64,000 nt of DNA from Candidatus Latescibacterota bacterium (GCA_965237675.1 OZ250150.1:1376001-1440000), one strand, 5' to 3'; counted from the stretch's first letter, positions 29,567-47,094 are shown. Made by a program: numbers and translations. Notes: generated by a model from the letters alone, not told the origin.

Positions 29567-29617
29567 TCTGGAGTACACCAACTCTACGACTCGCTCATCA
29601 TCCCTGGGCTGCCGTGC

Positions 29618-29703
29618 TGCAAACGTTCCCGCGGTGCGCGAACTACCAAAGGCAGTTGCGCGAAGGGCCGAATGGTCTGAGCCGAACACGGTCGTGTTAC
29701 ACG
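29618..29703 (-). mobile_element. attC-like site 1 (degenerate)
   Basis: Homologous to sites 3 and 5; GTTACACG at 29696 is the reverse complement of CGTGTAAC at 30339. Confidence 0.7.
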
Positions 29704-29739
29704 TTGCCGTGGCCGGGTGGACGCGACACGACCTCGATA

Positions 29740-30282: not shown

Positions 30283-30338
30283 TGACCGTGTCCTTGAGTG
30301 TCTACCAAGGGTCAGGTGGTGATGTCGGGTTCTGCTGG

Positions 30339-30431
30339 CGTGTAACGTGCTCACTATTTACGACCCCGCGTATGCGGGGTGCCGGATGGCCAAGGGGCGT
30401 ATGCCCCGCAGCGTAAATGGGGTGTTATCGG
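30339..30431 (-). mobile_element. attC-like site 2
   Basis: TAAC...ATTTACG/CGTAAAT stem with two internal hairpins...GTTATCGG. Confidence 0.85.
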
Positions 30432-30588
30432 TAGTAGATTATAGACTTGGTGCTTACCGTTTTCTTGAGTGGATGAATAACGCCGTCGGTAATCCTTTTG
30501 CCAGGGCGTCAGCGGGGGCGACTGGGTGGGCAGCCCGACGCTTTTGAATTTCCTATACTTTTCTCGCGATATAGATCGCCAAAGGTCA

Positions 30589-32121
30589 TCAGGGGCTCGG
30601 TTGCGCCGCCTCGCGCTCCGGCCGCCGTATATTGGGTCCCGCTTTGGTGTTGACGAAGCGCCGCTCGCGAATGGGGTTGCGCCAGCTGCGCACGCCGTGC
30701 GTCGTCGTGCCCGTGTACATGATCACCGTCCCGGCAACCCCGTGCATATGCTTGACCTGCGGCAGGTCGCAGCTGGTTTGCTTCGGGCGCGGCAGCGGTA
30801 GCCGCGCTTTGTGGCTTCCGGGGACTAACATCAGTCCGCCGTCGCCCGTCGCCGTCTCGACGTCTTGGAGCAGCCAGCCGATGTTCACCTGCTCCGTACG
30901 AGGCTGTCCGTCCCGGAAATGATAGGTAGGGCCGGCGCCGTAAAACCAGCCGCCATGCAGGGGCTGGCCGGCCGCCCCGTCGCGGCTGACGATGGTGTAG
31001 CACGTCGTCATGACGAAGCCCGGGTCGATCATCCACTTCAGCCGCGCGTTCACGAGCGGATTGTCGATCATGCGTCGAAAGCCGTCGCTGAAGGGTGGGG
31101 GATGGGTCCAGGTCTGCGAGATGCGCTCTTCGGTGCAGCGCGTGCCCGGGGCCGGGGCAATAGTCTGCGAACAGCCCTCGTAGTCCGGGTACTCGCCCAC
31201 GACACTGCTCGAAAAGCCCACCGGCCGACGGTTGGCTTCGGCGAAGTGCGAGTCGAGCGCTGCATTGCACTGCGCTAACCACTCGCGGTCCATCACGCCA
31301 GGCAGCACCAGGTAGCCTCTTAGGTCCCAGAACCAGACCTCCTCGTGGTTCGGAGCGTCAGGCCGCGTGTTGACGCCCAGCAGCGACGGCGCCAGCTGCT
31401 GCTCGTTGCTGAGGGGCTGGCCGTCGTGGCCGAGGCCGCGTGGTGGGCCGGCCACAAGCGCTCGGCGCGCCGGCGTGAGCTCATCCAGCCAGCTGTCCAC
31501 ACCCGTCGCGCCGTGGCCGAAGGCCCCCCCAGGGTAGCGGGAGTCGTCGCAAAAGATGCACTCCTGCAGCGAGGAGCCTGGGGCGGCGCCGACCAGCGTG
31601 GTGGCAACCGCGAGCAGACAGTCGCCAGCGCGGAGCTGCACGCACTCCGTCGCCCCGAGCTCCTCGGCGCGCGCCATGCTCGGGGGCGGCTGGACGTTGG
31701 CTTTGTGCGACGCGGGGCACACCACCACGCAGCTGTCGCCCACGGCCCACAGCGCGCGCAGCCCCCAGACGCACACCCGGTCGGGCCGGCTGGTCGTGTC
31801 GTAGCCCAGCCGGCGCTGCTCATCCACCGTCAGATCATTGGCCCACTGCCCCTCTTTGGTCAGGCGGCGCGACGGCCGGTCCAGCTCAAACTTGATCGTG
31901 TGGAACTCCTGTTCCTTCCCTTCAGTACCGTCGTACGCAGCGCGGTGCCACAGTGGTAACTCCCCGCCAGCTAGCTGATCAATCGCAGCCAGCAAGTCCG
32001 GATGCTCAGCCAGAGCGGCGGGTGTGGCGTGCGCCGCTGCCGGCGCGCCGAGCAGGCTCGGGAGGAGGATATAGCCGTCGAGCTCGAAGGCCCACCTCTG
32101 CTCCTCGGTCATCAGCGCCAT
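30589..32121 (-). CDS. Tandem PhyH-like (Fe/2OG dioxygenase) protein carried as a cassette
   Basis: Two FxLxGYxxL starts; C-terminal domain has LHGG, VPGSHK and THG; very GC-rich. Confidence 0.75.
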   Translation of the reverse strand: MALMTEEQRWAFELDGYILLPSLLGAPAAAHATPAALAEHPDLLAAIDQLAGGELPLWHRAAYDGTEGKEQEFHTIKFELDRPSRRLTKEGQWANDLTVDEQRRLGYDTTSRPDRVCVWGLRALWAVGDSCVVVCPASHKANVQPPPSMARAEELGATECVQLRAGDCLLAVATTLVGAAPGSSLQECIFCDDSRYPGGAFGHGATGVDSWLDELTPARRALVAGPPRGLGHDGQPLSNEQQLAPSLLGVNTRPDAPNHEEVWFWDLRGYLVLPGVMDREWLAQCNAALDSHFAEANRRPVGFSSSVVGEYPDYEGCSQTIAPAPGTRCTEERISQTWTHPPPFSDGFRRMIDNPLVNARLKWMIDPGFVMTTCYTIVSRDGAAGQPLHGGWFYGAGPTYHFRDGQPRTEQVNIGWLLQDVETATGDGGLMLVPGSHKARLPLPRPKQTSCDLPQVKHMHGVAGTVIMYTGTTTHGVRSWRNPIRERRFVNTKAGPNIRRPEREAAQPSP

Positions 32122-32323
32122 GGACCCGCTCCGTGGACATCGAAGAGGTATTTTTCCGTTTCGGTCATGAGGCAACCCTTTCTCTCACAGATCGTCGCAT
32201 TTGCGATTTGAGTTTGTTAGTGGGATGTGACAATCATCGGAACGAAATGGTTCGGTAAGCCCGCTGTGGCGTTCTCTGTTTGCTTCGTGATATTGATTCA
32301 CACCGATGCTCTCTTTTCTATTG

Positions 32324-32411
32324 CCGATAACGTTTTCCGTGCCCCCGAACCGCGAAGCGGTTGCGCGGAGGGCCGAATGGCCCGAAGCCGGGGGCACGGT
32401 CGTGTTATGTG
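32324..32411 (-). mobile_element. attC-like site 3
   Basis: CCGATAAC, 11-bp stem CCGTGCCCCCG/CGGGGGCACGG, two GAA-loop hairpins, GTTATGTG. Confidence 0.88.
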
Positions 32412-32529
32412 TTGTGCCAGCCGGGGGGCGAGGGCGGCCTTGCCACGGATGGCAAGGCCGCTTTGTCGCTGAAACAGAATTCCCGCTAAATGAATTATTC
32501 AGCGGAAATCTTGAAAGAAGAACGAGGGA

Positions 32530-32700
32530 TTATGTCTCCTGTTTCACCGATTCTTCTCTACTTTTCCGCACCAGCTTTTCAGGATGCTCTTTCTGGCGTC
32601 TTATGTAATACGCCACCAATTTCTTTGGGTCGTGATCACATTGCTCCGAAATCCTATGACGCACTTCACGAATCCTACGAATGGTCGGATCATCTTTCAT
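32530..32700 (-). CDS. Small putative antitoxin partner of the PIN toxin (56 aa)
   Basis: Manual translation MKDDPTIRRIREVRHRISEQCDHDPKKLVAYY...; overlaps the PIN stop. Confidence 0.65.
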   Translation of the reverse strand: MKDDPTIRRIREVRHRISEQCDHDPKKLVAYYIRRQKEHPEKLVRKSREESVKQET

Positions 32701-33175
32701 CTTCAATACCCCCCAGGAGTTCCAGCGGAGTCACCAACGTGGGCACATATAAGCCAAGAATAGTGTTGACTCGCTTGATGTGGGCAAACTTATTCGCGTT
32801 AGCCAGATGATTGCAATTCCATGTGAGCAAAAATTCACACTTATGATAAGAGGCTGTAGCAAGATGGAGTGCATCGCCCAGGGGATCATTAGGCATCATC
32901 TGGTGTTGGATATATGCTTCTACAATCTCAGCGATTTCTGGTTCAATTGGCAGCAGTGGCAAAGGAGCAACCAGGGCCAATACTCGGTCCTTGTTAGGAT
33001 ACTCTCCTACACTGAGTTCATCGATAACCGCTTCACTGGTGAAAATCTCATAACCCTCACGCCGTTCGTCCCACCATTGGCGTGTCCAAGTCCGCTTTGC
33101 AGCCATCTCGGGTTCTGTACGTGTTTCGTAATAGAAACTGGGAATAGATGTCTCGATGTAGACCTTAGGGATCAT
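32690..33175 (-). CDS. PIN-domain (VapC-like) toxin
   Basis: VYIETSI, SEAVIDEL, DALHLA, LLTWNCNHLAN. Confidence 0.85.
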   Translation of the reverse strand: MIPKVYIETSIPSFYYETRTEPEMAAKRTWTRQWWDERREGYEIFTSEAVIDELSVGEYPNKDRVLALVAPLPLLPIEPEIAEIVEAYIQHQMMPNDPLGDALHLATASYHKCEFLLTWNCNHLANANKFAHIKRVNTILGLYVPTLVTPLELLGGIEDER

Positions 33176-33364
33176 TATATATCATATTGTTTTTAATATG
33201 GTAAAGACGGTTCAATCCTGCTGCGATTGGTCACCTATTGACCTGCTATAAATCTACATATCTTAATCAAGTTCTTCAAGCGAAATTTCCGCTACTGAAG
33301 AACGTAGTGAGATTCTCTTGGGCGGCCAGGACGGCCGCCTGCTTTTGGAGGAAGGCTGGCATTG

Positions 33365-33454
33365 CACATAACGTTCTTGGGCCTTGCGAACCCGCGTCAG
33401 CGGGTTGTGTCGAAGCCCGACAGGGCTGAGCCGCAAGCGGACCTGTTAGCAGCC
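33365..33454 (-). mobile_element. attC-like site 4
   Basis: CACATAAC...TTGCG/CGCAA with internal hairpins...GTTAGCAGCC. Confidence 0.85.
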
Positions 33455-33583
33455 GGTGCTTCGGAGAAGGCATTCGACTGCCCCTCTACTCCAGGAATTG
33501 ACCTCTGTGCCTTTGTGGTGCGCCTTACGTTCCGCTTCCGGGAAGGACGTTGGCATAACAGCCTGGCCAGGTCGATCATTGAA

Positions 33584-35857
33584 TCAGAACTCGGCGGCAA
33601 TCATCGCGTACTGTCCGATGTTCGTTAATGTGGTTTCCAAGTGGTTTCCGTCGAACGTGACCTCCAGGTCATCTCCCGTGCAAACGTCCCATACGCGACG
33701 AGGAGTGCCCCGCTCCGTGAGCCACCAGCGCAGGTTCACTTCGGGTATCGTGGTCACATAGTCAAACTGTGGGCTGAAGCGCGGCCAGATCTCCGGCAGA
33801 TGCTCGACGCGCTCGCCGGTGTGATTGATCAGAAACAACACTTGGCTTCCTGGTTTTTCATTCGGAATCATCACGAGTTGGTTCGGGCCATCGGTCATCA
33901 GAGGCCGGCCCTCCGGGTAGAGCCAATCCACCACGGCGCCTAGAAGATCGCGGACCACCAGCAGGCGATATTCAAAATGAAGCTCCTCCACCGGCGCGGC
34001 CAGATAGACGACGCGCCCCTTGCCGACCGACCGGCAGGTGACGGCGGGACACAGAGCGTCGTCCGCGCGCCCACCGAAGACGATGTTCGCCACCACGTCG
34101 GTTCCCGGCCGCGCTTGGACGAACTCGAACCGATTGAGCGGCCACAGCTCATGCGAGCACCCCTCGGCCAGCCATTGACCCGGAACGCAGCGACCGTACG
34201 TGTCGAACGTCCCCGCGGCCCAGAGGTGTTGTTCGTAATCAGCGAATTGGTCGGGGTTCGGGTCCACGCGGTCCACGCCCAGAAGGTCCGCCAAGGCGAA
34301 GTTATCGCGCATCTCCTCAGGCTCGGCACCGTACAGGCTCGTCCGGTACGTTGCCAGGAGCCGCCCGCCCACCTTCACATATTCCGTGATGCCCTCGACT
34401 TCCTCCCGCGTGAGATGGCCGACGTTGGGCAGAAACAGAACAGGATACTTTGCCAACGCCGCTGGATCGGAGAGAACCCGCTCCTCGATCACCGATGTCG
34501 GCAAATGGTTGGCCAGCATGGTCGAGAAAGCCCCGCGACGGCAGGATTGCTGCGGGGGCGTGCGCACGAGATAGCCCGCCTCGGAGAGCGGGGCCTCGAG
34601 TTCCCCCGGACGGTCGGCGAGGTCCTGCTTGAACTGGCCGATGACATCGCGCGGACGATCGCGCATCACCAGGGGCTCGGCGCGGAACCGCACCCGCTCG
34701 AGCATCTCATACACCCGCACCGGCAAAACAAATGGAATAGCAACAAACGGTGACGGGTGGAGATCTTCGAAGAGTGATTCATTCGTCTCCAGGATCTCAA
34801 GGAGCTCCGCCAGCTCACGATTGGCTTTGTGGGGAGGCGACAGCCAAAGGTTCACGCCGCACGCCACCAGGACGCCCCCTCCGGAAGCAAAGCTGGCTGC
34901 CGCTTCCTCGACGAGTTCCATGCCGAAGCACTGCGTCCGAGACCAGCCCGTCAAGGCGCCGACGTATTGCCACATAGCCCAACCCGACGACTCGGCCAGA
35001 CTGGCCGCCTCGAGCCGATGAAGGAAGTCGCCCCCGGCCTCGTAGAGAAATCCATTGTGCACCTCCACGATCCTGCGTTCGGGCCAGTTGCCCACACCCA
35101 GGCCGTGCGTCAGCACCGGGATGTCCTTCTTCTTTCGCGTCGCGGCGGCGAATTCGAGAAAGACATCGCCGACGATCCTGCCGTACTGCAGGCTCCACTC
35201 TTCCAGCATCTCCTGGTCTTCCCGAGGCAGGCTGTGCGGATCGGGTGCATACGGCATTGGGCAGCCGAATTGCCTCTCGAACTTCTCGAGGCAATAGTCG
35301 CAGTAGCACAAGGGCGACTGCGGGGTGTGGTGCGAATGGTAAGGACAGGCAGAATCGGTGTAGATCGCGTCGACGTCGTGGTCCACCACTTGTGCGATGA
35401 AAGCGCAGATGGCCTCTCGGTACGGTGTGTTGAAGCAGACGTGCCGGTGAAATCCGCCGCCGTGGTGCCTCAGGACAGGAGCGTCGCCTTCGGGGCTGGG
35501 GCGGTACATCCACTCCGGATGATGGATCAGCATGTTGTCTTCGGGAATAATGTGCCCCACGGGAATGTACCCGATGACGCGCACGTCCCGCGCATGGGCC
35601 TCGGCGATGGTCTCGGCGAGCAGGTCGCGCTCACTTAATTGAGGGTGCGGGGGAAAGAACTCATTGGGGAAGACCGCCCATTTGCCCGCGCTGCCGAACC
35701 AAATGGCGTTGGCGTGGTATTTCCGCACGACATCGACGAGCTGCTTCGCGTCAAAGTCGATGTCGGGCCAGAAGGGCGGGTGGTATTGCTCTATCTGAAA
35801 GGTGCGCGCCCGCCGTACCCACTCGTGACTTGGCTTGATCATAGCGATGACCTCCAA
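33584..35857 (-). CDS. Glycoside-hydrolase-like protein (GHL6/GH42-type TIM barrel plus trimerisation domain) carried as a cassette
   Basis: DLLAETIAEAH, HPEW, CFNTPY, CYCDYC, LPNVGHL, GGRLLATY, GKGRVVY. Confidence 0.75.
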   Translation of the reverse strand: MEVIAMIKPSHEWVRRARTFQIEQYHPPFWPDIDFDAKQLVDVVRKYHANAIWFGSAGKWAVFPNEFFPPHPQLSERDLLAETIAEAHARDVRVIGYIPVGHIIPEDNMLIHHPEWMYRPSPEGDAPVLRHHGGGFHRHVCFNTPYREAICAFIAQVVDHDVDAIYTDSACPYHSHHTPQSPLCYCDYCLEKFERQFGCPMPYAPDPHSLPREDQEMLEEWSLQYGRIVGDVFLEFAAATRKKKDIPVLTHGLGVGNWPERRIVEVHNGFLYEAGGDFLHRLEAASLAESSGWAMWQYVGALTGWSRTQCFGMELVEEAAASFASGGGVLVACGVNLWLSPPHKANRELAELLEILETNESLFEDLHPSPFVAIPFVLPVRVYEMLERVRFRAEPLVMRDRPRDVIGQFKQDLADRPGELEAPLSEAGYLVRTPPQQSCRRGAFSTMLANHLPTSVIEERVLSDPAALAKYPVLFLPNVGHLTREEVEGITEYVKVGGRLLATYRTSLYGAEPEEMRDNFALADLLGVDRVDPNPDQFADYEQHLWAAGTFDTYGRCVPGQWLAEGCSHELWPLNRFEFVQARPGTDVVANIVFGGRADDALCPAVTCRSVGKGRVVYLAAPVEELHFEYRLLVVRDLLGAVVDWLYPEGRPLMTDGPNQLVMIPNEKPGSQVLFLINHTGERVEHLPEIWPRFSPQFDYVTTIPEVNLRWWLTERGTPRRVWDVCTGDDLEVTFDGNHLETTLTNIGQYAMIAAEF

Positions 35858-36205
35858 AATCTGTACCGTCTTTTTTTACCCGCAGAGCCCGCGGAGAACG
35901 CAGAGAACGGCCTTCCATGATTCACGGCCGCTCATCATGATCGAGAAGCCGAGAAATATCAGGCTGAACCCCAGCCAGCAGCCCAAGCTCGGCTGTCGGC
36001 ACCAACTCAGGACCCGAGCTAACAGGAGCAACGTCGAGAATGGACGAAGAACGCTTTGGTTGCCGGCGGAAGGTCCGCTCCCACGTTTAACCCGAGGACC
36101 TCAACGACCCTCCCCGCTGTCATGAGAATGGGAAGCAGGAGTGCAGGTAACGCCGCAACCAGAGCAGCACGGAGGTCATTCGCAGTCATTGGTTTCGACT
36201 GGCAT

Positions 36206-36293
36206 GGCTGCTAACGTTTTCCGTGCCCCCGAACCGCGAAGCGGTTGCGCGGAGGGCCGAATGGCCCGAAGCCGGGGGCACGGTGTTAGAGGC
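36206..36293 (-). mobile_element. attC-like site 5
   Basis: Interior identical to site 3 except a 3-nt deletion; GGCTGCTAAC...GTTAGAGGC. Confidence 0.88.
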
Positions 36294-36323
36294 TGTGTGG
36301 CAGGGGTGGGGTTGAGTGGTTGC

Positions 36324-36614
36324 TCAAGCGCTTAACGACCGAGCCACGGTTTCTGGGTTTTCCGAAGCAATCTTGAGTAGGGCCCGAGCAGGACCCTCGG
36401 GACGGCGCCGTCCCTGTTCCCAATTTTGCAAAGTAGAGACGCTGACGCCAATCATCAGGGCGAATTCAGATTGCGACTTATCCAGTTTCTTTCGGATCAT
36501 CCTGATATCGGCGGGATCCATCTGGGTCGTGCGCCCTGGCTTCAACTTGCCGCGCTTGATCGCGCCAGCTTGCTTGACGCTGGCTACAAGTTGGTCAAAG
36601 TCACGCTCATTCAT
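36324..36614 (-). CDS. HTH-XRE antitoxin (HigA/NadS-like)
   Basis: IRKKLDKSQSEFALMIGVSVSTLQNWEQGRRRP. Confidence 0.88.
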   Translation of the reverse strand: MNERDFDQLVASVKQAGAIKRGKLKPGRTTQMDPADIRMIRKKLDKSQSEFALMIGVSVSTLQNWEQGRRRPEGPARALLKIASENPETVARSLSA

Positions 36615-36928
36615 GCCAGATACTCCCTTACGAGTTTGCTAAGCAGATTGCACTGTCGAGAGGTGAGATCTTCCTGCCGGCTCTTCCGATACACCCAGAG
36701 CATATAGACAACCTCGGCCGGCTTGTCCCAATAGTAGATCACACGAAGACCGCCCCGTTTGCCAGCGTGCGGCAATTTCCATCTCAGTTTTCGCAATCCA
36801 CCTGTATGCGGAATCAGCTCTCCTGATTCTGGCCGGAATAGGAGCGCCAGCTGTATTGCCCGGTAGTCCTCATCCGATAGTAGGGTCAAGATCTCCTTTG
36901 TGAAGATTGGCGTCTCGACGAAGATCAT
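36611..36928 (-). CDS. RelE/HigB-family toxin
   Basis: MIFVETPIF...TGGLRKLRW...GKRGGLRVIYY. Confidence 0.88.
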   Translation of the reverse strand: MIFVETPIFTKEILTLLSDEDYRAIQLALLFRPESGELIPHTGGLRKLRWKLPHAGKRGGLRVIYYWDKPAEVVYMLWVYRKSRQEDLTSRQCNLLSKLVREYLA

Positions 36929-36984
36929 ACGCACAATATACGCCAATGACGTATAGCACGCAAGGTCTTTACTTTGGCCACATG

Positions 36985-37020
36985 GCCTCTAACTACGGTA
37001 TTACCGAACAGTTACGGTAA
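36985..37020 (-). mobile_element. attI-like site A heading the five-cassette array
   Basis: R box matches the end of the HigBA cassette; followed by TACGGTATTACCGAACAGTTACGGTAA with no closing attC arm. Confidence 0.6.
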
Positions 37021-37388
37021 CGCGTACCTAATGCGAAGATCTGCGAACATTCGGGAACATGTTGCTTCGAAGCGTGTAGTCCGAACATGCTCAGGAATGC
37101 ATCCTATAGTCTTCACGATTGTACCAGAGTCTGATCTCGCGCTTAATTTCCCTGCAGCATATATATGAGGGTTTGTTGCCCTCGTTGGAAGAATTAAGTC
37201 GCGGTCGCGAGATATGTAGAAACGTGGGCGTATGAATTATACCTGCAAAGGAAGGCGACGGCAAGAGCGTGGGCGACTTCAGATCCACAAACTCATATGA
37301 TGTCGGCCGCAGAGCCGCTCCCTGAGCCGTCGAGCAGCAGCAGGCACGCCGTGCAGGTTGAAGTCATCGCAAATTCAGGCTCGTGGCG

Positions 37389-38084
37389 TTAGGCGAGACT
37401 TGTACGTCGGTTCCCAGTGTTTCTCGCCCGGCCACTCCCGGTACTGGATGTCCGTTCCGAAGGCACTCAACGCGGCAAACAGCTCCTGTTCTGTCGGGAA
37501 ATTCTTCACGATGTCGTACTCCTGTCCATCCGAGAGAACCGCCGCTCGATGGTATCGCCGTTGGAATCCTCGTGACGTTGCGCGGCCATTCCGTCAACTC
37601 TGGGAACGTCATATTCGAGCTGGTCCGAAAACAGCACCAGCGCTCCGGGAATCAACCTGCGGTGAAGCGATTGCAGAAACTGCCGCACGCGGGACCTGGG
37701 AATGTGCGACCACCACCAGACAGCGAACGCTGCCGTGAAGGCGCCCGCCTCGGGGCCGAGGGAATACGCGTCTGCAAGGCGGAATTTCACATGCGGGAAA
37801 TGTTCACACCTCGATTGAGCCCGGGAGATCATTTCAGGATTGACGTCAATTCCGACAACCGACTTTGCAGTTTCCGCAAGGACCTCCGTCCAGTATCCGG
37901 TTCCACACGCAATTTCGAGGACGTCGTGGCCGAGAAAGAGCTGCTGATATCTTCTCTTTTTCGCAACGCGGAGAGTTTCTGCGTCGTGAGTCAGATACCC
38001 CGCGCTAACGTCGTATTCCGGAGCGCGCGCGGCATAGTATCGGGCCGTTTCTTCGGATGTCCCATCGCTGGAATGAGGCGTCAT
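37389..38084 (-). pseudogene. Class I SAM methyltransferase with a 1-bp deletion near 37540
   Basis: YYAARAPEYD, VLEIACGTG; GAGAACCGCC here versus GAGAACCCGCC in the 27.9 kb copy. Confidence 0.8.
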
Positions 38085-38091
38085 CTCGACC

Positions 38092-38517
38092 CTATTCGCA
38101 GTTCTGTCTCTCGAAATTCCGAACAACCATTCCCACGCACTCCGAGAAACCCTGCTTGACGTAGAATTCAGCCACATCCCGGTCGCACACCAGGTCTACC
38201 ATATAAAGATGCCCGACCTGATCGAGCATTCGCCTGACAAGTTCGGCGCCAATGCCCATACCCTGGTATTCCGGGAGTACGCTGAGGTGAGGAATATATG
38301 CACAGGACACACCGTCCGAGATGGCGGAAATCCAACCGACGACCTGTCCTTCCGGCGAAATAGCCAGAACATGGAAATCGCTGCCCTGTAAAATTCGGAG
38401 ATGCGCCTCCGGGGAGGGAGGATCAGGCCAGTTTTCGAAGTGACCCTCAAGATTGTCGGGCCGGATTCCCTCAAGGGTACTCTGGTATCTGATTGACATC
38501 GGGTCGTGTGCGTTCAT
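38092..38517 (-). CDS. GNAT family N-acetyltransferase
   Basis: VLPEYQGMGIG motif A; FYVKQGF. Confidence 0.88.
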   Translation of the reverse strand: MNAHDPMSIRYQSTLEGIRPDNLEGHFENWPDPPSPEAHLRILQGSDFHVLAISPEGQVVGWISAISDGVSCAYIPHLSVLPEYQGMGIGAELVRRMLDQVGHLYMVDLVCDRDVAEFYVKQGFSECVGMVVRNFERQNCE

Positions 38518-38692
38518 GTGGATTTTTCACTGGCCATGTGGTCTGGCGTCTTGCCGCGCCTCAGCCGCGAATGCAGATGGGCGAAGGGGGTCTGCCCGAA
38601 GGCACATCCCGTCGGGTCGCTCGCCTGTGTTGGTCTCCGCAACTGAAAACGCGCTGCGCAGTCAACGGGACGTGGCTCGTTCCGCCGTATGA

Positions 38693-39457
38693 TCAGGCAG
38701 CTGTCAGTGCGGGTCTTCTGGCGACCGCCACAAGACGATTGGATTCCCTGCCGTATTCCTCCCCCTCGAAACTCCCGTAGAGTTTCACATCGCCAAATCC
38801 AACGGCAAGCAGTCTGTCCTTCAGTTCCTGGCCGGAATATACGGTGTGGTGAAACTCGAAGGTGCGGACCTCCGGACCCTTGATGATGATCCATTCATTT
38901 CTGATGCGAGACCATTCGTCGAAGATCTCGTGGCGCTGCACCATCAGCGTACCGTCTTCAAGCTTCTCGGACGTCGTCGGCTGGAAAATCCTCGCCAGCT
39001 TCTCCTTGCCGATGATATCCATCACAAGACGTCCACCGGGCTTCAGACTGCCAAAAATCCTCCTCAACACCCTGACGTCCTCGTCCTTGTCATCAAAGTA
39101 GCCAAAGGAGGTGTTGAGGTTGAGAACAAGATCGAAGGATGCGGGGCGCTCAAACCCCCGCATGTCTTTCTCGACCCATTCGATGTCCGGATTCCATTGC
39201 GCCGCCCTTTCCGCCCCCTTGCCCAGCAGAAACGGGCTCCTGTCCACCGCTGTGACCTGAAACCCGCGCTGCGCCAAGGGGATCGCAAAGCGGCCGGGGC
39301 CGCAACACAGGTCGAGGACCGACCCTGAGTCCACACCGACCAGATTGAGGATGTCGTCAAGGTGCTTCTCGGCAGCCTCAAACCTTGCCTTAGAAAAAAG
39401 AAACGGATAAATCGCGGTCCAGAAGGACTCGTCTTCAAACCATTCCAAATGCCTCAC
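38693..39457 (-). CDS. Class I SAM-dependent methyltransferase
   Basis: VLDLCCGPGR, TSFGYF, LKPGG. Confidence 0.9.
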   Translation of the reverse strand: MRHLEWFEDESFWTAIYPFLFSKARFEAAEKHLDDILNLVGVDSGSVLDLCCGPGRFAIPLAQRGFQVTAVDRSPFLLGKGAERAAQWNPDIEWVEKDMRGFERPASFDLVLNLNTSFGYFDDKDEDVRVLRRIFGSLKPGGRLVMDIIGKEKLARIFQPTTSEKLEDGTLMVQRHEIFDEWSRIRNEWIIIKGPEVRTFEFHHTVYSGQELKDRLLAVGFGDVKLYGSFEGEEYGRESNRLVAVARRPALTAA

Positions 39458-39538
39458 CTCCTGGACTTACCAACTCAATACAATTCGACTTCCCGTTTAG
39501 CGGGCGTGTCCTCACAGTTCTCAGGAAACGAATACTTT

Positions 39539-39590
39539 GCGTAACTTTGGTTTTGCCAAACAGGGACGGAAATACGGACCGGACCGGAAA
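39539..39590 (-). mobile_element. attI-like site B (diverged)
   Basis: GTAAC-TTTGGTTTTGCCAAACAGGGACGGAAATACGGACCGGA aligns with the 46967 copy. Confidence 0.5.
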
Positions 39591-39630
39591 ACGCCCGAAC
39601 GCTCGCGACAGGTCACTCCTGGCCCGATCA

Positions 39631-39867
39631 TCAAGCTCGTAGATGCGCTTTCCATCCGACCACAACAATTTCACGTTCCGCCTCGGCAGGCACAGCGCGA
39701 AGTCCATCCGCTCGCCGATCCTCAAGGATGAGCGATATCGCATCCCGTAGACTCATAAGGGCTTCATCCTTAGACTTTCCCTGGCCATTGGCACCCGGAA
39801 TCTCAGGGCAATAGGCAATGATCCATTCGTTGTCATGTTCGATCACTGCGGTGAATTCGTTTCTCAT
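39631..39867 (-). CDS. hicB: HicB-family antitoxin (short)
   Basis: FTAVIEHD..W.IAYCPEIPGANGQG.S.DEA. Confidence 0.85.
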   Translation of the reverse strand: MRNEFTAVIEHDNEWIIAYCPEIPGANGQGKSKDEALMSLRDAISLILEDRRADGLRAVPAEAEREIVVVGWKAHLRA

Positions 39868-39972
39868 ATTCGACCCTCCTGGAATCCTGATTCAAGGCTC
39901 ACTGCTCAAATCAATATATCCTCTTCCATTGGGAAAATACAGAAAAGATATCTGTTTCATCCCAGCCGATGT

Positions 39973-40033
39973 CATTTAACGTTCTCCGGTTTGCGAACCC
40001 AGAGCTCGGCCGCGGAGCCTACGCGCTGAGCCG
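39973..40033 (-). mobile_element. Truncated attC-like site (site-4 type) at the ankyrin gene 3' end
   Basis: TTAACGTTCT...TTGCGAACCC...GCTGAGCCG matches site 4; GTT arm missing. Confidence 0.55.
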
Positions 40034-41782
40034 TTCCTGATTTTGCGATCTGGCACCTGCTTGCCGAAGCATCTCGGCGATTTCCATATGCCCACGTTTT
40101 TCAGCCCAGGCTAAAGGCGTTGCCCATTTCGGTGTGTTGGAAATATTCGCGGAAGCCCCACGTTCAAGCAAAAAAGCAACCACATCTTTGTGGCCCGCGC
40201 GGACATGCCAGCCCAGTGGCGTCGAACACAGTTCGTCATCTTGAACATTCAAATCAGCCATATAATCGAGCAACAATTCTGCCATCTCAATCATCACGGC
40301 TTCACTATTGTTCCATACTTCCTCACGTTCATGATAGCTTCCCCCGATCCAATGCAATAAGGTTGAGTTTTCCGGCCCCCGGATGTTAACATCAACACCA
40401 TAATCCAAAATCATCCGTACGGTTTCTCCGGCGCCGCTTTGCAGCCCCCAGCGTAAACACTCAAACCAATAATCCGCATCAAAATCGGGTTCACAGCGCA
40501 AGCACATTCTTACGACATTGACATCTTCAAAGCTCAATCCCGAACGCATGGTTTGTCGAACCACGCCTTCACTACGATCCTGTGGCAAATAGCCGGCTTC
40601 CCGAACAGCCGTGGCACGATCCAGTAACTCACCTATCACGCAATATTGTCTTGCCTTCACGTATGTCCACATCATCGGGTGCCCACCATTTACATAGATG
40701 CGATCCGCCAAACCCTGGTTGCCAGACAGCAACGCCTCGTCAGCTACGCCCAATTCCGAATCATTCGCGGGTGCATCCGTGCGCGCACCGCGATCCATTA
40801 ACCGTTCGGCCACATCAAAGTGTTTGCGTTCCAGTGCATAAATCAATGCACCGCAAATATGGACCACCTTACCACTGCGTTCACATTTTGTATCCACGTC
40901 GGCTCCAAAATCCAAGAGCAAATCTACGACCTCCAAATGCCCCTCGCGCGCCGCCATCGCCAGGGGATAGGTCGATGCATTTTTGTTATTCGCACGCCCG
41001 CACTGATAATTCACCAGACTGGCGTCCGCTTCCAGCATCTTCTTGACACCTTCCAGATCACCAAGAGCACTGGCTACCCAGATGTCGTAATTTGCCCCAT
41101 GTTCAAGCAACAATTCAGCCATCTTTCGATACGCCGGCTTATCACGGTTGGGGTCGTTGCCTTTAAATAGAGCGCGGTGGATGGGTAATTCATTTTCGGC
41201 GTTCTTGATATTCACATCAGCGCCAGCGGTGAGCAAGTCGGTCACAAGTTTAAACTGCATATGCCACACCGCATAATGAAGGGCTGTATTGCCGGCTGTA
41301 TCGCATTCGTTTATGATTGCCGGTTCCTTTTCCAATATGAAGCGCACTTTCTCAAGCTCCTGCATCCGGGCCGCATCACAGAATTCCACCCCACGAGATG
41401 TTGTCCCATGTTGTGTGTTCAACCACGCGTCAATTAAAGCGACGACCTCCGTATGCCCTCGGTCCCGTGCCAATGTCAACGGTTGCGACGCCTCCCGGTT
41501 AGGCCAAATCCCAACGGTCGGACCGGCGCCCGCTTCGAGCAGTATCTTCACTACCTCTGCATGACCTTCCCGAGCGGCATAGTGAATGGGGCGTCGTCTG
41601 TGTTGCTGATGGTTTTTGGCAGTTGCCAAATCCGGATTCTTCTTCAACAGCATCTTTACCCTTTCCACGTCTCCCGCTTGCGCAGCGTGGCATATTCTGA
41701 TAGCATCTGCAAACACATCGTCTCTTGAAGGGGCTTCATTTCTAAAAGTCTTCTTTGCCATTATTGGAAACCGTTCATTCAA
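40019..41782 (-). CDS. Ankyrin-repeat protein
   Basis: Many P(I/L)HxAAxxGHxEVVxxLLxxGA repeats. Confidence 0.9.
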   Translation of the reverse strand: MNERFPIMAKKTFRNEAPSRDDVFADAIRICHAAQAGDVERVKMLLKKNPDLATAKNHQQHRRRPIHYAAREGHAEVVKILLEAGAGPTVGIWPNREASQPLTLARDRGHTEVVALIDAWLNTQHGTTSRGVEFCDAARMQELEKVRFILEKEPAIINECDTAGNTALHYAVWHMQFKLVTDLLTAGADVNIKNAENELPIHRALFKGNDPNRDKPAYRKMAELLLEHGANYDIWVASALGDLEGVKKMLEADASLVNYQCGRANNKNASTYPLAMAAREGHLEVVDLLLDFGADVDTKCERSGKVVHICGALIYALERKHFDVAERLMDRGARTDAPANDSELGVADEALLSGNQGLADRIYVNGGHPMMWTYVKARQYCVIGELLDRATAVREAGYLPQDRSEGVVRQTMRSGLSFEDVNVVRMCLRCEPDFDADYWFECLRWGLQSGAGETVRMILDYGVDVNIRGPENSTLLHWIGGSYHEREEVWNNSEAVMIEMAELLLDYMADLNVQDDELCSTPLGWHVRAGHKDVVAFLLERGASANISNTPKWATPLAWAEKRGHMEIAEMLRQAGARSQNQERLSA

Positions 41783-42001
41783 ATGTCGGCGTGCTGAACG
41801 ACGCAGGCCGTATTGGCAAACCCAATCCGAAATCTCAACCTCGCAAACCTCTTACTACCAAAATTACGCCGATCGTCTCACATTGAAATAGGCAAGACAA
41901 AAGAGCCATGCAGATACTTTTCGAAAGGTCAATTGGAAGAGAAGAGGAGGGTGGGAAAAGGGATTTGGTTTGGGAGTTTCTTTAGGGGATGGCGGAAATT
42001 G

Positions 42002-42036
42002 CGTGTAACTACGGTATTACCGACAGGTTACGGTAA
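42002..42036 (-). mobile_element. attI-like site C upstream of the ankyrin gene
   Basis: CGTGTAAC-TACGGTATTACCGACAGGTTACGGTAA, near-identical to site A. Confidence 0.6.
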
Positions 42037-42065
42037 AACGCATCAGGTCCGAACATCTCCCAACG

Positions 42066-42175
42066 TTTGGAATGGTCAGAATGCGCACCCCTTCTGTCAT
42101 AATAATGTGCTTACCCTGGCGTGCAATGTGAAAACCGGCTTTCTCCAATGCACGTACGGAATCCAAACCTGCCAT
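42066..42175 (-). pseudogene. hicA: HicA toxin remnant
   Basis: Manual translation VRALEKAGFHIARQGKHIIMTEG / VRILTIP, frameshifted and truncated. Confidence 0.65.
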
Positions 42176-42254
42176 ATCGGACACCTCGTCTAGTTTTTCG
42201 GAGAGCGTCGCGCTAACAAATAACCACGGCAGTTCTCGGAAAACCGCTCGCCAG

Positions 42255-42440
42255 TGTTCTGTCCCGGAAATTGGTTGCCAAAATTCGGCCGATCAGAAGC
42301 AGCAATAACAGCTATCAGCTCTCAGCCGTCAGCTTGAACCAAAAACCCAATCAGTTGACATCAGCGCCGTGAAGAGACGAGACCAGAACGGGCGCCGCGA
42401 GACGGGATGAATCGGCGGCCGAATGGTGAGATATTTTCGG
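42255..42440. mobile_element. Partial MITE of the same family as 60307-60467, with nested heptamer repeats
   Basis: Shares TGTTCTGTCCCGGAAAT..GTTGCCAAAATTCGGCCG and GCCGCGAGACGGGATGAATCGGCGG; right TIR truncated. Confidence 0.7.
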
Positions 42441-43286: not shown

Positions 43287-43433
43287 GTCGTTGTCCTTTG
43301 CCCAGGTGCCGGTTCGGTTGTCCGGACCGGAAGGAATGGCAGGGAGCATTTCCCTGGCAAGGTGGATGGTCCAGGGTGACCGTCATCGGTACTTCCCGGA
43401 TCGCCTTGGTCCACCTGCATATGTACTAATGTA

Positions 43434-44504: not shown

Positions 44505-44544
44505 TTGGTTCCTTTCGTTGGTACGGCGCCGATGAAGGAATACA

Positions 44545-44607
44545 GAAAAAAAAGCCCGGAAGCTGGATGAGCCGCCTCCGAAACCCTTTCGTTACACTGG
44601 ACGTCAT
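44545..44607 (-). pseudogene. N-terminal remnant of a ParE/RelE-like toxin
   Basis: MTSSVTKGFRRRLIQLP starts overlapping the antitoxin stop (ATGA), then similarity is lost. Confidence 0.45.
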
Positions 44608-44843
44608 TGCCGAGATGGATCAGCTGGAAAAACATCATCAAATGCAATCGTTTCGCTCTCAGCAGTCTCTCTTCTTGCTGCTTCGGCCAGACGGTCCCAC
44701 TGCTCATCGGCTGTGGCATTAAAACGTGCTGTCCAAATATGCTCATCTTTCAGGTCGGCCAGAATACGTGTGGCAATGGCATCCTGCTTGTCTGGCGGCA
44801 GCTTCTGAATTTCTGAAAATGCCTGCTGAAGCAAGTCGGTCAT
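44604..44843 (-). CDS. Small putative antitoxin
   Basis: MTDLLQQAFSEIQKLP..KQDAIA..IL..L.DE..W pattern of small TA partners. Confidence 0.6.
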   Translation of the reverse strand: MTDLLQQAFSEIQKLPPDKQDAIATRILADLKDEHIWTARFNATADEQWDRLAEAARRETAESETIAFDDVFPADPSRQ

Positions 44844-44994
44844 TTCTGCAGCTCCTTGTGTGAGTGCGCAGTTTTCTGAAAATATAACTCCAAATGGCGA
44901 TATTGGTTGGATTGACTTCTGCTCATTCGCTCTTTCGATTGCTCACTTATTTACGGGGGACCGCTGTCTCATTAATATAGGCACAGAGGGTCCC

Positions 44995-45339
44995 TCATTT
45001 CAGTGCATCCGTCTCCAAGACATCGGCGAGTGTTTCAGTCGCCCACTGATTGATACTCTTTCCGCTGACTTCAGCCGCCATGGCAATGGCTGCGTGGACC
45101 TCTGGTGGGATGCGCAACATCAGATTGCCGGAATAGGGCTTTTGAGGGGACCTGTTGAGCTTTTCACAGGTTTCAAGATAGTCGTCAACCGATTCTCCAA
45201 AAGCATCACGCAGTTCTTCGACCGATTCGCCGTGAAAGCCTACCACATCATTGATCCCTGCAATATGACCAATGAAGCAGCCGTCTTCATGGCTATAGTC
45301 AATTCGAGCCGCGTATCCTCTATGGGTCATTGTGTTCAT
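44995..45339 (-). CDS. hicB: HicB-family antitoxin with RHH domain (orphan)
   Basis: MNTMTHRGY.A.I.YS..D..F.G...FHGESV.EL...KPYSG.LMLRIPPEVH; only a HicA-like tail (QAGVAP*) upstream. Confidence 0.85.
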   Translation of the reverse strand: MNTMTHRGYAARIDYSHEDGCFIGHIAGINDVVGFHGESVEELRDAFGESVDDYLETCEKLNRSPQKPYSGNLMLRIPPEVHAAIAMAAEVSGKSINQWATETLADVLETDALK

Positions 45340-45564
45340 GGGGCTACTCCTGCCTGTTGTCTGCAGATCGCTCTCGCTGTCTTGCCCATTGTGTCTCTGC
45401 GTCTTTGTGTGAGCCGGCTTTTTCGTGACGACGCGAGGCCCGGGGGTCTCCCCTGCGAAATCCAGGCATCCGCGAATTGATATCGCAAGGCCATATCGAT
45501 GTCCGGCGGGGTGCGGCGTGGTCCTCTTCCCTCTCCCGTTTACCTTCTCACTGCTTCTTGTGCT

Positions 45565-45795
45565 ACCCCTACGCGCCTTTTTCGTGTCGGCCGAGAAGGT
45601 GCTGGGCGATGAATCGCTGGCTGTAGACGACGGGACCCACGTATCGGACCTGGACGGAGTTGTTCCGCGACCCGCAATGCCAGATCTGGTTGTGGAACAT
45701 GTAGACGTCGCCCGGTTTCGCGACCAGGGATACCGGCTGCCGGCCTTCAAAGGTCGGAATCTTGCGGTCGTTCGGGTTTCTGCCGGCGTAGTGGC
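45565..45795 (-). pseudogene. Diverged duplicate of the 3' end of the PhyH gene at 47095-47919
   Basis: Aligns to ~47097-47396 with an internal deletion between GAGGCGCTG direct repeats. Confidence 0.85.
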
Positions 45796-45822
45796 AACTG
45801 AGTGTTATGGTAAGCTGGACTA

Positions 45823-45996
45823 TCAGCCCGTGCTCGTGTCTATTGATGGTTCCTTATGATCATCCGGTTTTTGTCCCGATCTTTCTTCAATATACTCAAT
45901 TTGTTGTTGAGGAGTCATCCCTTGCATCTCTTCGCTCATTTGATCACGAAGAGTCCGCATGAGTTGAACCGCATTAGTCTGCTGTTTCGTCTTCAT
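45823..45996 (-). CDS. Small antitoxin-like protein (57 aa) after an internally deleted PIN remnant (~45975-46140)
   Basis: MKTKQQTNAVQLMRTLRDQMSEEMQGMTPQQQIEYI; upstream fragments LSDVTLAELRQAP and LEIRSPQEV; R''-like CCATAAC follows. Confidence 0.6.
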   Translation of the reverse strand: MKTKQQTNAVQLMRTLRDQMSEEMQGMTPQQQIEYIEERSGQKPDDHKEPSIDTSTG

Positions 45997-46142
45997 AATA
46001 CACCTCCTGAGGAGAGCGAATCTCCAAGGGGTGGGTGTCTTAAAAGGGCTTGCACGGCATCCGGGGCCTGGCGCAGTTCAGCAAGGGTAACGTCCGATAG
46101 TACGGCTGTCAATCGACCCGCTTGAAAGTCGGCAAAAAGACG

Positions 46143-46218
46143 TCCAGAATGTGGTCGCAGCCCCGAAAGGCGCGAAGCGCCTGGAGCACAAACATGCTGT
46201 TAAGCGAAGTCACAGTCT
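46143..46218 (-). mobile_element. attC-like site 6 (degenerate left arm)
   Basis: AGGCGCGAAGCGCCT hairpin; GTTAAGCGAAGTCACAGTCT matches the reverse complement of 46954-46973. Confidence 0.7.
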
Positions 46219-46334
46219 TGGGCGGTTGAGCTGCTTTTCATATTCGACTTGAACTATTCGGCAAATTACTGTAGTTTTTTTCAATCAATGAATAATTCTG
46301 ACAGTGGCTGGTGTTTGCCATAGGAGATTTATGG

Positions 46335-46619
46335 ATGCTTAAAATCTCGTCTGCAAAAGCATTACCTGATTATAAGATTTGGATTCAATACTCAGATGGC
46401 GTTGAGGGTGAAGTAGATTTATCCCATCTTGTTGGCAATGGTGTATTCTCCGCTTGGAAAGATGCAAATGTGTTTCAGGCTTTCCGGGTTGAAAACGGCA
46501 GATCTATTACTTGGACAGACGAAATCGATCTGTGTGCAGATTCGCTCTATTTGGAGATGACAGGAAAAGCTCCCGAGGATATTTTCCCTGCGTTGAGGAT
46601 GGAAGATGTGAATGCCTGA
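46335..46619 (+). CDS. DUF2442 family protein (putative TA partner)
   Basis: YSDGVEGEVDL...ITW..EIDLCADSLY. Confidence 0.8.
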   Translation: MLKISSAKALPDYKIWIQYSDGVEGEVDLSHLVGNGVFSAWKDANVFQAFRVENGRSITWTDEIDLCADSLYLEMTGKAPEDIFPALRMEDVNA

Positions 46620-46872
46620 GATATGTCGGTTTTATGGAATTATTATCAAGATGTACGTGAATGATCATCCACCCCCGCATTTCCATGCGGAATACGCAGA
46701 ATATGCGGCTGTGATCAATATTGGGACATTGGCCGTCATCGCAGGAAATCTCCCTTCACGGGCGCTGGGTTTGACAGTCGAATGGGCATCGTTACACCAA
46801 GACGAAATGAGAAATCTATGGGAGCGAGCACGAAATCATGAATCCTTGGGCAAATTAGATCCTCTGCAATAG
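46612..46872 (+). CDS. DUF4160 family protein (putative TA partner)
   Basis: MPEICRFYGIIIKMY..DHPPPHFHA. Confidence 0.85.
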   Translation: MPEICRFYGIIIKMYVNDHPPPHFHAEYAEYAAVINIGTLAVIAGNLPSRALGLTVEWASLHQDEMRNLWERARNHESLGKLDPLQ

Positions 46873-46966
46873 AGATCCGATCATAACCCGGTACTTCTAC
46901 CGCAATGACCAAAGCTAAAGCTTCCGGTTGTTGCGGTTTTTGTCTGGGGGGGTAGACTGTGATTTT

Positions 46967-47010
46967 GCTTAACTACGGTATTAACGAACAGGTACGGCAA
47001 TACGGACCGG
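46967..47010 (-). mobile_element. attI-like site D
   Basis: GCTTAAC-TACGGTATTAACGAACAGGTACGGCAATACGG. Confidence 0.6.
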
Positions 47011-47094
47011 AACGGAAATTCCCGATCAGTCGGCATGTTGAATTACGCCGACCAGTGAAAGCGTTGGCAGGAGCCCGGGCGACTCAAAGTGCGC

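Follow-up and report, generated by a model that had tools for sequence, protein, structure and literature searches.

The window, i.e., the whole stretch of 64,000 nucleotides from Candidatus Latescibacterota bacterium that was analysed (GCA_965237675.1, OZ250150.1:1376001-1440000), contains gene blocks whose ends form inverted repeats reaching well beyond the core of an attC-like recombination site. This raises the question of what kind of element these blocks represent, whether the two ends of a block pair with each other more than expected by chance, and what such pairing would mean for recombination.

Cassettes and attI-like sites in the window

The covariance model R1, whose strand was assumed to be the bottom strand, matched attC-like sites on one strand throughout, five within the window and 31 across the whole genome (G000). 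With these five sites and no recombinase gene, the window has the make-up of a CALIN (at least two attC sites, no nearby integron integrase). The sites are located on the + strand at 29618-29702 (71 bits, E 8.9e-18; cassette 29624-30345), 30340-30430 (75.9 bits, and also folded; PhyH cassette, 30346-32330), 32325-32410 (74 bits; PIN cassette, 32331-33371), 33366-33451 (71.6 bits; 757-aa glycosidase-like cassette, 33372-36214) and 36209-36291 (80.8 bits; HigBA-like cassette, 36215-36992, assigned with Pfam to a RelE/HigB-like protein and an HTH antitoxin). The inner part of the HigBA-like site is near-identical to that of the PIN site. A sixth site, at 46088-46205 (+), was recognised by reading the sequence and is an atypical or degenerate attC (R' GGGTAAC, R'' GTTAAGC) of the DUF2442/DUF4160 cassette (46091-46972); it was missed by R1, its predicted fold has no L-box-like stem, and the genes of its cassette lie on the strand opposite to those of the other window cassettes. 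Pfam upheld the gene labels given previously, with a PhyH domain in the ORF 30589-32175 (-), a PIN domain in the ORF 32690-33175 (-), and GHL6 and Glyco_hydro_42M domains in the 757-aa glycosidase-like cassette.

An earlier note on this DNA had listed four terminal repeats, all of which were reproduced. On the + strand, the R'' box and right outer arm of the PhyH cassette (30424-30438) pair with its left outer arm and R' up to the TAA|C crossover (32317-32331; 15 bp, two G·T), and the corresponding arms of the PIN cassette are 32404-32422 and 33354-33372 (19 bp, two G·T and one T·T). In the HigBA-like cassette, 36285-36301 pairs with 36977-36993 (17 bp, two G·T), and the pairing runs on to 26 positions with one G·A mismatch and more G·T, giving arms of 36285-36310 and 36968-36993. 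The left arms of these three cassettes were read from the sequence and an anchored alignment, that of the DUF2442/DUF4160 cassette from the sequence and a motif scan (46199-46218 with 46954-46973; 20 bp, its two G·T being the T·G wobbles of positions 8 and 11). Anchored alignment and pair strings give G·T for eight of the nine + strand mismatches in the four repeats, as the note had counted. Two cassettes had not been listed, namely the glycosidase-like one, with arms at 33445-33460 and 36201-36215 (15 pairs, one bulge), and the cassette 29624-30345, whose ends pair weakly and mostly by G·T. The paired arms fall in untranslated flanks.

On the + strand, each mobile unit starts with the C of a TAA|C and finishes with the AA of the following one; the attC-like hairpin occupies one of its ends, and the outer half of the R' arm occupies the opposite end. 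Since the crossover would lie within the R stem, the cassette would always take the distal portion of R' along. The units are discrete and have their boundaries at the G|TT (AA|C) crossover. In a contig of run X1, position 36210 is joined to 36989 and exactly 778 nt are missing, the length of the HigBA-like cassette, and one and the same cassette end abuts an attC within the window as well as the attI-like site at C1:4757707, both at TAA|C. Between genomes G012 and G000, the module of attI and recombinase is common to both (96.6% identical), the first cassette differs, and the array breakpoints fall at attC sites.

An attI-like site without a recombinase gene lies at 36990-37100 (+; motif scan and by-eye alignment), directly adjoining the left arm of the HigBA-like cassette, and consists of a 22-nt core and, after it, some 90 nt that share homology with the spacer before the recombinase gene at G000:C1:4757704. 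The motif scan gave three more on the + strand, a diverged copy at 39542-39640 and sites at 42006-42100 and 46970-47070, the last of which adjoins the DUF2442/DUF4160 arm. A conserved sequence of about 110 nt adjoins the TAA|C of differing first cassettes in G000, G008, G012, G015 and contigs of other samples, and the stop codon of the recombinase gene is about 110 bp away from this attI-like sequence. A tyrosine recombinase heads the arrays at at least six loci.

Pairing between the ends of a cassette

The pairing was evaluated in 159 unique adjacent attC pairs from seven related Candidatus Latescibacterota genomes, and cassette ends pair above chance. In G000 only, the 22 unique cognate pairs have 8.3 of 12 positions paired past the R box, as opposed to 6.1 of 12 in 462 non-cognate combinations (Mann-Whitney p 2.7e-5). 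In the full sample, positions 13-18 contain on average 3.43 Watson-Crick pairs in cognate and 1.73 in non-cognate ends (n=159, p 8e-34), and none of 2000 partner shuffles matched the observed pairing at these positions. The X-drop stem length has a median of 15 bp (IQR 10-18) in cognate and 5 bp in non-cognate ends, with a mode of 15-18 bp. Where the sites are spaced by less than 1200 bp (n=110), the median stem is 15-16 bp, and only 4-8% of the stems are 6 bp or shorter.

The stem follows a fixed plan, position by position. Positions 1-4, which comprise the AAC/GTT core and its neighbour, are conserved across cassettes, and at positions 2-4 the AAC of R' and the GTT of R'' in RYYYAAC/GTTRRRY are present in 92-96% of the 159 pairs. 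At positions 5-7, R'' is complementary to the R' of its own cassette and not to that of the neighbour, with Watson-Crick frequencies of 0.76-0.82 in cognate as opposed to 0.29-0.33 in non-cognate ends (n=159). Position 8 is C-G in 0.92 of the cognate and non-cognate sets alike. Positions 9 and 10 are again cassette-specific (0.68 and 0.58 versus 0.32-0.33), and their left arm is G or T in 133/159 (84%) and 152/159 (96%), respectively. Position 11 is a T·G wobble in 120/159 pairs and a Watson-Crick pair in only 6/159, with T on the left in 144 and G on the right in 130, and position 12 is a conserved A-T. Positions 13-18 add three to seven cassette-specific pairs, the cognate Watson-Crick frequency declining from 0.68 to 0.43 against about 0.3 (0.26-0.35) in non-cognate ends, and from position 21 on the pairing is at background level. 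The claim of a different stem sequence in every cassette is thus correct for the covarying positions 5-7, 9-10 and 13-18 and incorrect for positions 1-4, 8, 11 and 12, which are conserved. The C-G at position 8, the T·G at position 11 and the restriction of the left arm to G or T at positions 9-10 point to constraint.

This plan also accounts for the G·T mismatches, which the earlier note had described as strand-specific wobbles. Instead of being tolerated wobbles scattered along the stem, they are due to the T·G conserved at position 11 and the G/T left arm at positions 9-10; in the cassette-specific outer part (positions 13-18), G·T and A·C mismatches occur 73 and 82 times. The strand bias therefore vanishes in the sample of 159 pairs, the very outcome which the note had named as speaking against it.

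Proposed role of the long arm

We consider it probable that the window contains integron-type arrays in which a long R-arm stem with a fixed plan is rebuilt in the circle and may raise integration over excision. Circularisation would bring the cassette ends together and restore the complete R-arm duplex. An attC within the array is a hybrid whose outer R' half comes from the neighbouring cassette, and therefore only the conserved positions pair and the fold is weaker. As the earlier note had proposed, the excised circle would have the longer stem, and on the bottom strand it is predicted to fold better than the integrated hybrid site by a mean of 7.1 kcal/mol (-7.1; n=159). The predicted energy changes from -28.5 (integrated) to -43.5 kcal/mol (circle) for the PIN cassette and from -35.9 to -44.5 for the HigBA-like cassette; for one of the six cassettes in the window, 29624-30345, the circle brings no gain (-19.1 vs -19.6). 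The bottom strand is predicted to be more stable than the top strand by 3.8 kcal/mol in the circle and by 1.7 in the inner hairpin only.

Xer-type tyrosine recombinases use arms of about 11 bp, and positions 1-12 may likewise represent the full binding arm for a recombinase monomer cleaving AA|C, while positions 13-18 could act as a clamp against fraying of the hairpin at its open end. The long arm would then be the footprint of the recombinase, would favour integration of the circle over excision, and may be kept because only well-pairing circles integrate. Several findings count against this proposal, as the outer positions 13-18 show no strand-specific signal (G·T:A·C 73:82), the cassette 29624-30345 does not fold better in the circle, compensatory double changes are in no clear excess among 18 homologous cassette pairs, and the best outer stem, the 20 bp of the DUF2442/DUF4160 cassette, belongs to an inner site that R1 does not recognise.

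The gradual decay of pairing at positions 13-18 would be equally expected from neutral erosion of a once-perfect repeat. A cassette may have started out with a hairpin that was long and perfect, or have arisen via a fold-back or single-stranded intermediate; since then, the crossover within the stem would have moved both halves together while positions 13-18, unmaintained, eroded. The equal numbers of G·T and A·C, the smooth fall in pairing down to background at position 21, the weak correlation of stem length with attC score (Spearman 0.21, p 0.007), as would result from joint decay, and the comparison of 18 homologous cassette pairs, which revealed no clear excess of compensatory double changes, all fit such an origin. 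However, it explains neither the greater arm length relative to class 1 cassettes nor the conserved C-G, T·G and G/T-only left arm, and filtering at every integration would give the identical pattern without a special origin. No known process predicts such a remnant stem, because the genesis of cassettes is described as unknown by Cury et al. (2016), and we regard this origin as rather unlikely.

Far less credible is that the pairing is not cassette-specific at all and arises from a self-complementary consensus of the lineage, or from G+T-rich composition, shared by all flanks. Non-cognate flanks do exceed the random expectation (the 6.1/12 in G000), their G·T is more frequent than A·C (0.13 vs 0.037 at positions 9-10), and positions 1-4, 8, 11 and 12 are conserved, but cognate pairing lies well above shuffled pairing at positions 5-7, 9-10 and 13-18, a level that no permutation reached, and the median stems of 15 and 5 bp differ accordingly. 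Little weight can likewise be given to a function in RNA, in which the arms would loop each cistron of a polycistronic transcript for stability or translation control. attC hairpins are transcribed together with their cassettes and the arms are untranslated; however, the sense RNA has the - strand sequence, since the genes are on the - strand, and there the T·G at position 11 turns into an A·C mismatch in 120/159 pairs, the top strand folds worse by the 3.8 kcal/mol given above, and the DUF2442/DUF4160 genes are inverted without any change in the wobble strand. Viewed on the + strand, the gene blocks bracketed by inverted repeats ending in GTTA/TAAC resemble transposon-like units inserting into a palindromic repeat instead of split-site cassettes, but this is very improbable given that Pfam finds no transposase in the units, identical ends join an attC or an attI-like site precisely at TAA|C, the missing 778-nt unit includes the hairpin, and the arrays are headed by a tyrosine recombinase.

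Recombinase and comparison with known systems

The recombinase heading the arrays is IntI-like and lacks the integron-specific insertion. Its best relative of solved structure is IntI4 (VchIntIA, PDB 2a3v; E 2.8e-43). It scores 214 bits against the IntI model TIGR02249, below the cut-off of 265, in two pieces that skip model positions 175-234, and no protein of G000 matches this model above the cut-off. For the XerA family model NF040815, the cut-off of 220 is almost reached (218.6). An alignment with the canonical IntI of a related genome (39% identity) reveals that the recombinase lacks about 41 residues, and this gap falls precisely where the integron-specific domain is located; its identity to a paralogue beside an IS91-family transposase is 51%. 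An integrase with the IntI-specific additional domain adjoining attI, as expected of a complete integron, is thus not seen in G000, and a canonical IntI above the cut-off occurs in 2 of the 41 related genomes searched.

The I2 "additional domain" is thought to let integron integrases read folded attC sites. It is a tentative possibility, less likely than not, that a tyrosine recombinase intermediate between IntI and Xer runs these arrays, in which the I2 domain was either never present or lost, and that recognition and strand choice depend on the duplex-like R arm of about 12 bp with its fixed T·G (position 11), on a spacer confined to one side and on a single bulge, while the clamp at positions 13-18 closes the arm in the circle. 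An enzyme of this kind would mirror in nature the I2-less integrases built in the laboratory and would offer insight into the origin of integrons from Xer-type enzymes, and if a recombinase without the integron-specific domain acts on these sites, the accepted link between this domain and single-stranded recombination would need to be qualified.

As in the integrons of class 1 and Vibrio, most genes of an array share one orientation and look promoterless, an imperfect hairpin between RYYYAAC and GTTRRRY boxes follows each gene, the crossover lies within the R box, and the distal R' half moves with the cassette; as with IntI (TIGR02249), the recombinase adjoins an attI-like site at the array head, although IntI carries the additional domain and the Latescibacterota enzyme does not. 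The site length of 70-152 nt, mostly with a three-way junction, agrees with the 57-141 nt and variable terminal structure of attC sites. The canonical attC, as described by Nivina et al. (2016), has a two-sided spacer of 5-6 nt plus two or three extrahelical bases; this spacer is central and unpaired, and the extrahelical bases stand on the '' arm. Among the predicted minimum-energy folds of 106 sites with constrained R boxes, the commonest form, exact in 41/106 sites and accompanied by close variants, departs from this plan: a 4-nt bulge interrupts the 5' arm alone, 2 bp follow, the 3' arm then has one bulge of 1 nt, and another 9 bp lead to a three-way junction.

Bouvier et al. (2009; PMC2727003) state that self-pairing "for most gene cassettes" reaches 9-11 nt, past the 7-nt R boxes. 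The long end pairing is hence an extension of a known feature of integron recombination sites and not a new type of element, and the view of the earlier note that it is undescribed as a general feature does not hold for pairing beyond 7 nt; new relative to that account is the stem length, with its mode of 15-18 bp about twice the textbook figure. The class 1 cassettes measured here have stems of 6-12 bp, in agreement with those 9-11 nt, in a small reference of 13 cassettes whose attC sites were picked by an in-house fold scan. The Latescibacterota stem further differs from the class 1 and Vibrio integrons in its conserved C-G (position 8) and T·G wobble (position 11).

In Xer/dif-type sites and the single-stranded hairpins that mimic them, such as the attP of phage CTX, a folded strand likewise presents a duplex-like site, in which two arms, each about 11 bp long, flank a short unpaired centre and mismatches mark one strand. 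This likeness implies no dif or Xer function, and the Latescibacterota sites instead form cassette arrays with an attI-like partner. Because a folded attC is read by its shape, both the efficiency of cassette capture and the strand used depend on how far the R arm extends and how it is composed. The hybrid sites, predicted to be about 7 kcal/mol weaker, would offer a simple physical reason for a possible stability of the arrays combined with efficient integration of circles. Compared with the class 1 and Vibrio models, these arrays provide a natural contrast, in which the arm is twice the textbook length, contains an invariant wobble and is split between the two ends of the cassette.

Attachment sites, arrays and unit boundaries

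Since generic hairpin scans were too noisy in a genome of 58% G+C, a covariance model (R1) was used instead, built from 16 hairpins of the source genome (alignment A1), with its structure set by hand because RNAalifold gave only 8 pairs. In the window, R1 recognised five attC-like sites, all on the + strand (29618-29702, 30340-30430, 32325-32410, 33366-33451 and 36209-36291), with E-values of 1e-17 or better, the next match having an E-value of 3.3. The source genome contains 31 such sites in total, the majority in a large array on contig C1 at 4.685-4.753 Mb, and R1 matches were obtained in 29 of 41 related genomes. Rfam contains no attC family, and its sole match in the window is a cobalamin riboswitch just beyond the arrays (26426-26597, - strand, 118 bits). 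The genes between the window sites encode PhyH, PIN, glycosidase-like, RelE-like and HTH domains according to Pfam and are located on the - strand, which is why the + strand was taken as the bottom strand, as in the earlier note. Integron-type cassette arrays make up the region, each cassette unit starting at the C of a TAA|C and ending with the AA of the following one.

In predicted folds, the inside of the sites has a spacer of 4 nt on one side only and just one bulged base, unlike the canonical attC described by Nivina (2016). The inner attC parts of the PIN (32331-32402) and HigBA-like (36215-36284) cassettes are near-identical and their R'' boxes and outer arms differ, which suggests gene conversion among inner hairpins, ending at the R box. 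The inner site of the DUF2442/DUF4160 cassette (46088-46205) was missed by R1 and its fold is unlike that of the other sites; this cassette has the longest clean outer stem (20 bp), and its genes lie on the strand opposite those of the other cassettes. An ORF of 368 aa without a Pfam match (28661-29767, - strand) crosses the attC at 29618-29702 and is probably non-coding towards its 5' end. Two further ORFs on the - strand, 44995-45750 and 47095-48009, share long stretches that are near-identical by eye, e.g. 45570-45790 with 47100-47390, and are probably paralogous cassette genes.

A second conserved sequence follows TAA|C at window positions 36990, 39542, 42006 and 46970, with six further copies elsewhere in the source genome. 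The copy at C1:4757704 adjoins a tyrosine recombinase gene, about 110 bp from its stop codon; the sequence is here named attI-like. Four attI-like sites thus lie within a 10-kb stretch of the window, each abutting a cassette TAA|C and none with a recombinase gene; between them (37100-39540, 40020-42000 and others) there are genes and no site recognised by R1. In the window, the glycosidase-like cassette abuts an attC at its left end, whereas a 97.5%-identical copy abuts the attI-like site at C1:4757707, the break between the two contexts falling within TAAC. This context shows the inverted repeats to be the ends of mobile units.

The sequencing runs were examined as assembled contigs, in which rare excised circles are not visible. 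One contig of another sample (run X1), whose similarity to the window is about 98%, connects 36210 with 36989, and the 778 nt skipped are exactly the HigBA-like cassette. It may come from a paralogous locus, where that cassette also joins an attI-like site, and is therefore not independent of the comparison of the window junction with that at C1:4757707. A contig of run X17 steps back from 33339 to 32334, with 32 other nt at the joint; this may represent the junction of a circle, a tandem copy or a different array having the same attC inner part.

Pairing of cassette ends

The coordinates and mismatches of the four long inverted repeats described in the earlier note were both confirmed in the sequence and by alignment. 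The two window cassettes that it had not listed also pair at their ends, the glycosidase-like one over 15 pairs interrupted by a single bulge and the 29624-30345 one weakly. In the source genome, 8.3 of 12 positions beyond the R box are paired in 22 unique cognate pairs, i.e. the cassette start with the flank beyond its own R'', vs. 6.1 of 12 in 462 non-cognate pairs with the flanks of other cassettes (p 2.7e-5). For a larger sample, dense arrays were fetched from six related genomes (G008, G010, G015, G016, G020 and G038), comprising 194 sites in 27 loci. The profile was made from 191 of these and the five window sites, and neighbouring sites 150-3300 nt apart yielded 165 pairs, 159 of them unique.

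With the crossover C·G numbered 1, positions 2-4 are conserved, with a Watson-Crick fraction of 0.92-0.96 in cognate and 0.90-0.93 in non-cognate pairs, as is the C-G of position 8 (0.92 and 0.90). Positions 5-7 covary per cassette (0.76-0.82 vs. 0.29-0.33), as do positions 9 and 10 (0.68 and 0.58 vs. 0.32 and 0.33). At position 11, 120 of 159 pairs have a T·G wobble and only 6 of 159 are Watson-Crick (non-cognate 0.04), and position 12 is mostly A-T (0.74 vs. 0.47). Covariation continues through positions 13-18, decaying from 0.68 to 0.43 (non-cognate 0.26-0.35), and from position 21 onward both classes are at a background of about 0.25.

Over positions 13-18, cognate combinations average 3.43 Watson-Crick pairs and non-cognate ones 1.73 (p 8e-34), and in 2000 shuffles of the partners the observed pairing was never attained. 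By X-drop, the median stem is 15 bp long (IQR 10-18) in cognate vs. 5 in non-cognate pairs, and stems of at least 15 bp make up 57% vs. 4.5%. Short stems are concentrated in widely spaced site pairs, which probably enclose an undetected site; at a spacing below 1200 bp (n=110), the median stem is 15-16. In 18 homologous cassette pairs, several of which share only partial homology, compensatory double changes were not clearly in excess. Long cassette-end pairing is general in this lineage, as seen in the 159 unique pairs. As a separate observation, two copies of the PIN cassette (left arms at 33354-33371 and G000:C1:4726460-4726477) are 98% identical, with a cluster of substitutions at left-arm positions 5-10 (ACATAA vs. 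TTATAA, T vs. G) and identity over the next 20 nt outward.

Wobble pairs, folding and a possible role of the arms

A strand-specific excess of G·T wobbles had been proposed from eight of nine mismatches, all of which fall within positions 8-11. At position 11, the conserved T·G has a left T in 144 and a right G in 130 of 159 pairs. At positions 9-10, the ratio of G·T to A·C is 39:9; the left arm is G or T in 133 of 159 pairs at position 9 and in 152 of 159 at position 10, so that non-cognate partners give the same G·T share (0.78). The ratio is 73:82 at positions 13-18, and the general bias is gone in the large sample. These counts thus describe one fixed wobble and a G/T-only stretch, not a general bias towards tolerated wobbles. 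Both have a real but modest effect on folding: the predicted contribution of the outer stem is 11.8 kcal/mol for the bottom strand and 9.7 for the top strand. Non-cognate pairing at positions 9-10 is 0.44-0.48 in hybrid array sites, where a G/T-only arm, able to pair with either of two partner bases, would allow more pairing.

On the bottom strand, the reconstructed circle is predicted to fold 7.1 kcal/mol better than the integrated hybrid (n=159). The predicted energies for the integrated form and the circle are -26.9 and -30.8 kcal/mol for PhyH, -28.5 and -43.5 for PIN, -24.1 and -31.5 for the glycosidase-like and -35.9 and -44.5 for the HigBA-like cassette, with no gain in the 29624-30345 cassette (-19.6 and -19.1). 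The earlier interpretation is supported in part: the better predicted fold of the circle is retained, the strand bias is lost, and pairing beyond the R box was already known.

Since the crossover lies inside the R stem, the two arms travel with the cassette whenever it is excised or integrated, and only in the circle do they come together. Positions 1-12 could then serve as the arm for the recombinase, with positions 13-18 clamping the end, and each integration would act as a filter that captures only circles with good arms, followed by neutral decay within the array. Such a filter would explain the covariation, the lack of an outer strand bias and the weak correlation of stem length with attC score. 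A less probable alternative is that the outer pairing only preserves a record of how the cassettes arose.

The array-head recombinase and comparison with known integrons

Outside the window, the main array is headed by the gene of an IntI-like, 333-aa tyrosine recombinase (G000:C1:4757838-4758836, - strand; L001:1171-2172), which adjoins the attI-like site. In the source genome, no integron integrase was found above the TIGR02249 cut-off. The best solved relative of the enzyme is Vibrio IntI4 (2a3v), to which it aligns in two pieces, and, in contrast to canonical IntI (that of the related genome G017), it is without about 41 residues at the position of the integron-specific domain. In the phylum, six or more further loci have the layout of a recombinase followed by an array; the order recombinase, attI-like sequence where present, and opposite-strand array is found in G012 and at L056, L057, L061, L062 and L070. 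The recombinase-attI module of G012 is 96.6% identical to that of the source genome (its recombinase 96%), and the first cassettes differ. Canonical IntI above the cut-off is present in 2 of 41 genomes searched, and the IntI loci of G017 have just one R1 match within 20 kb.

A simple reading of the recombinase as the array enzyme is opposed by the scarcity of intact close homologues, which are present in few of the 29 site-bearing genomes. Equally against this reading is a 283-aa paralogue in G020, 51% identical to the array-head enzyme and directly followed by an IS91-family transposase (L019:20-2068, i.e. G020:C1:3850020-3852068); it has six copies, all near arrays and several within or beside the fetched attC arrays. 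Recombinases without intI_Cterm near attC sites are reported in Cury et al. (2016; Supplementary Figure S1) and may include relatives of this enzyme. The association of the arrays with a recombinase that lacks the integron-specific domain is what most merits follow-up.

A cyanobacterial plasmid carrying an integron integrase had no obvious cassette array. The class 1 reference consisted of 13 cassettes from four plasmids (L042, L043, L052 and L054), two of the cassettes having a common 5' end and being probable hybrids; here, the stems are 6-12 bp long (median 8) and stop sharply at 8 or 12. Cassette-end pairing of 9-11 nt is given for most cassettes in a single sentence of Bouvier et al. (2009), the source of this figure here, which cites Rowe-Magnus (2003) and Sundström (1991). 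A full-text literature search, with most subscription journals outside its scope, gave no description of stems of at least 15 bp or of a conserved attC wobble. The general feature for which the earlier note knew of no description is therefore already known as pairing beyond the R box, while its length and fixed plan are apparently new. The principle is thus known from other integrons, and the stem length and fixed plan appear to be a variant of this lineage.
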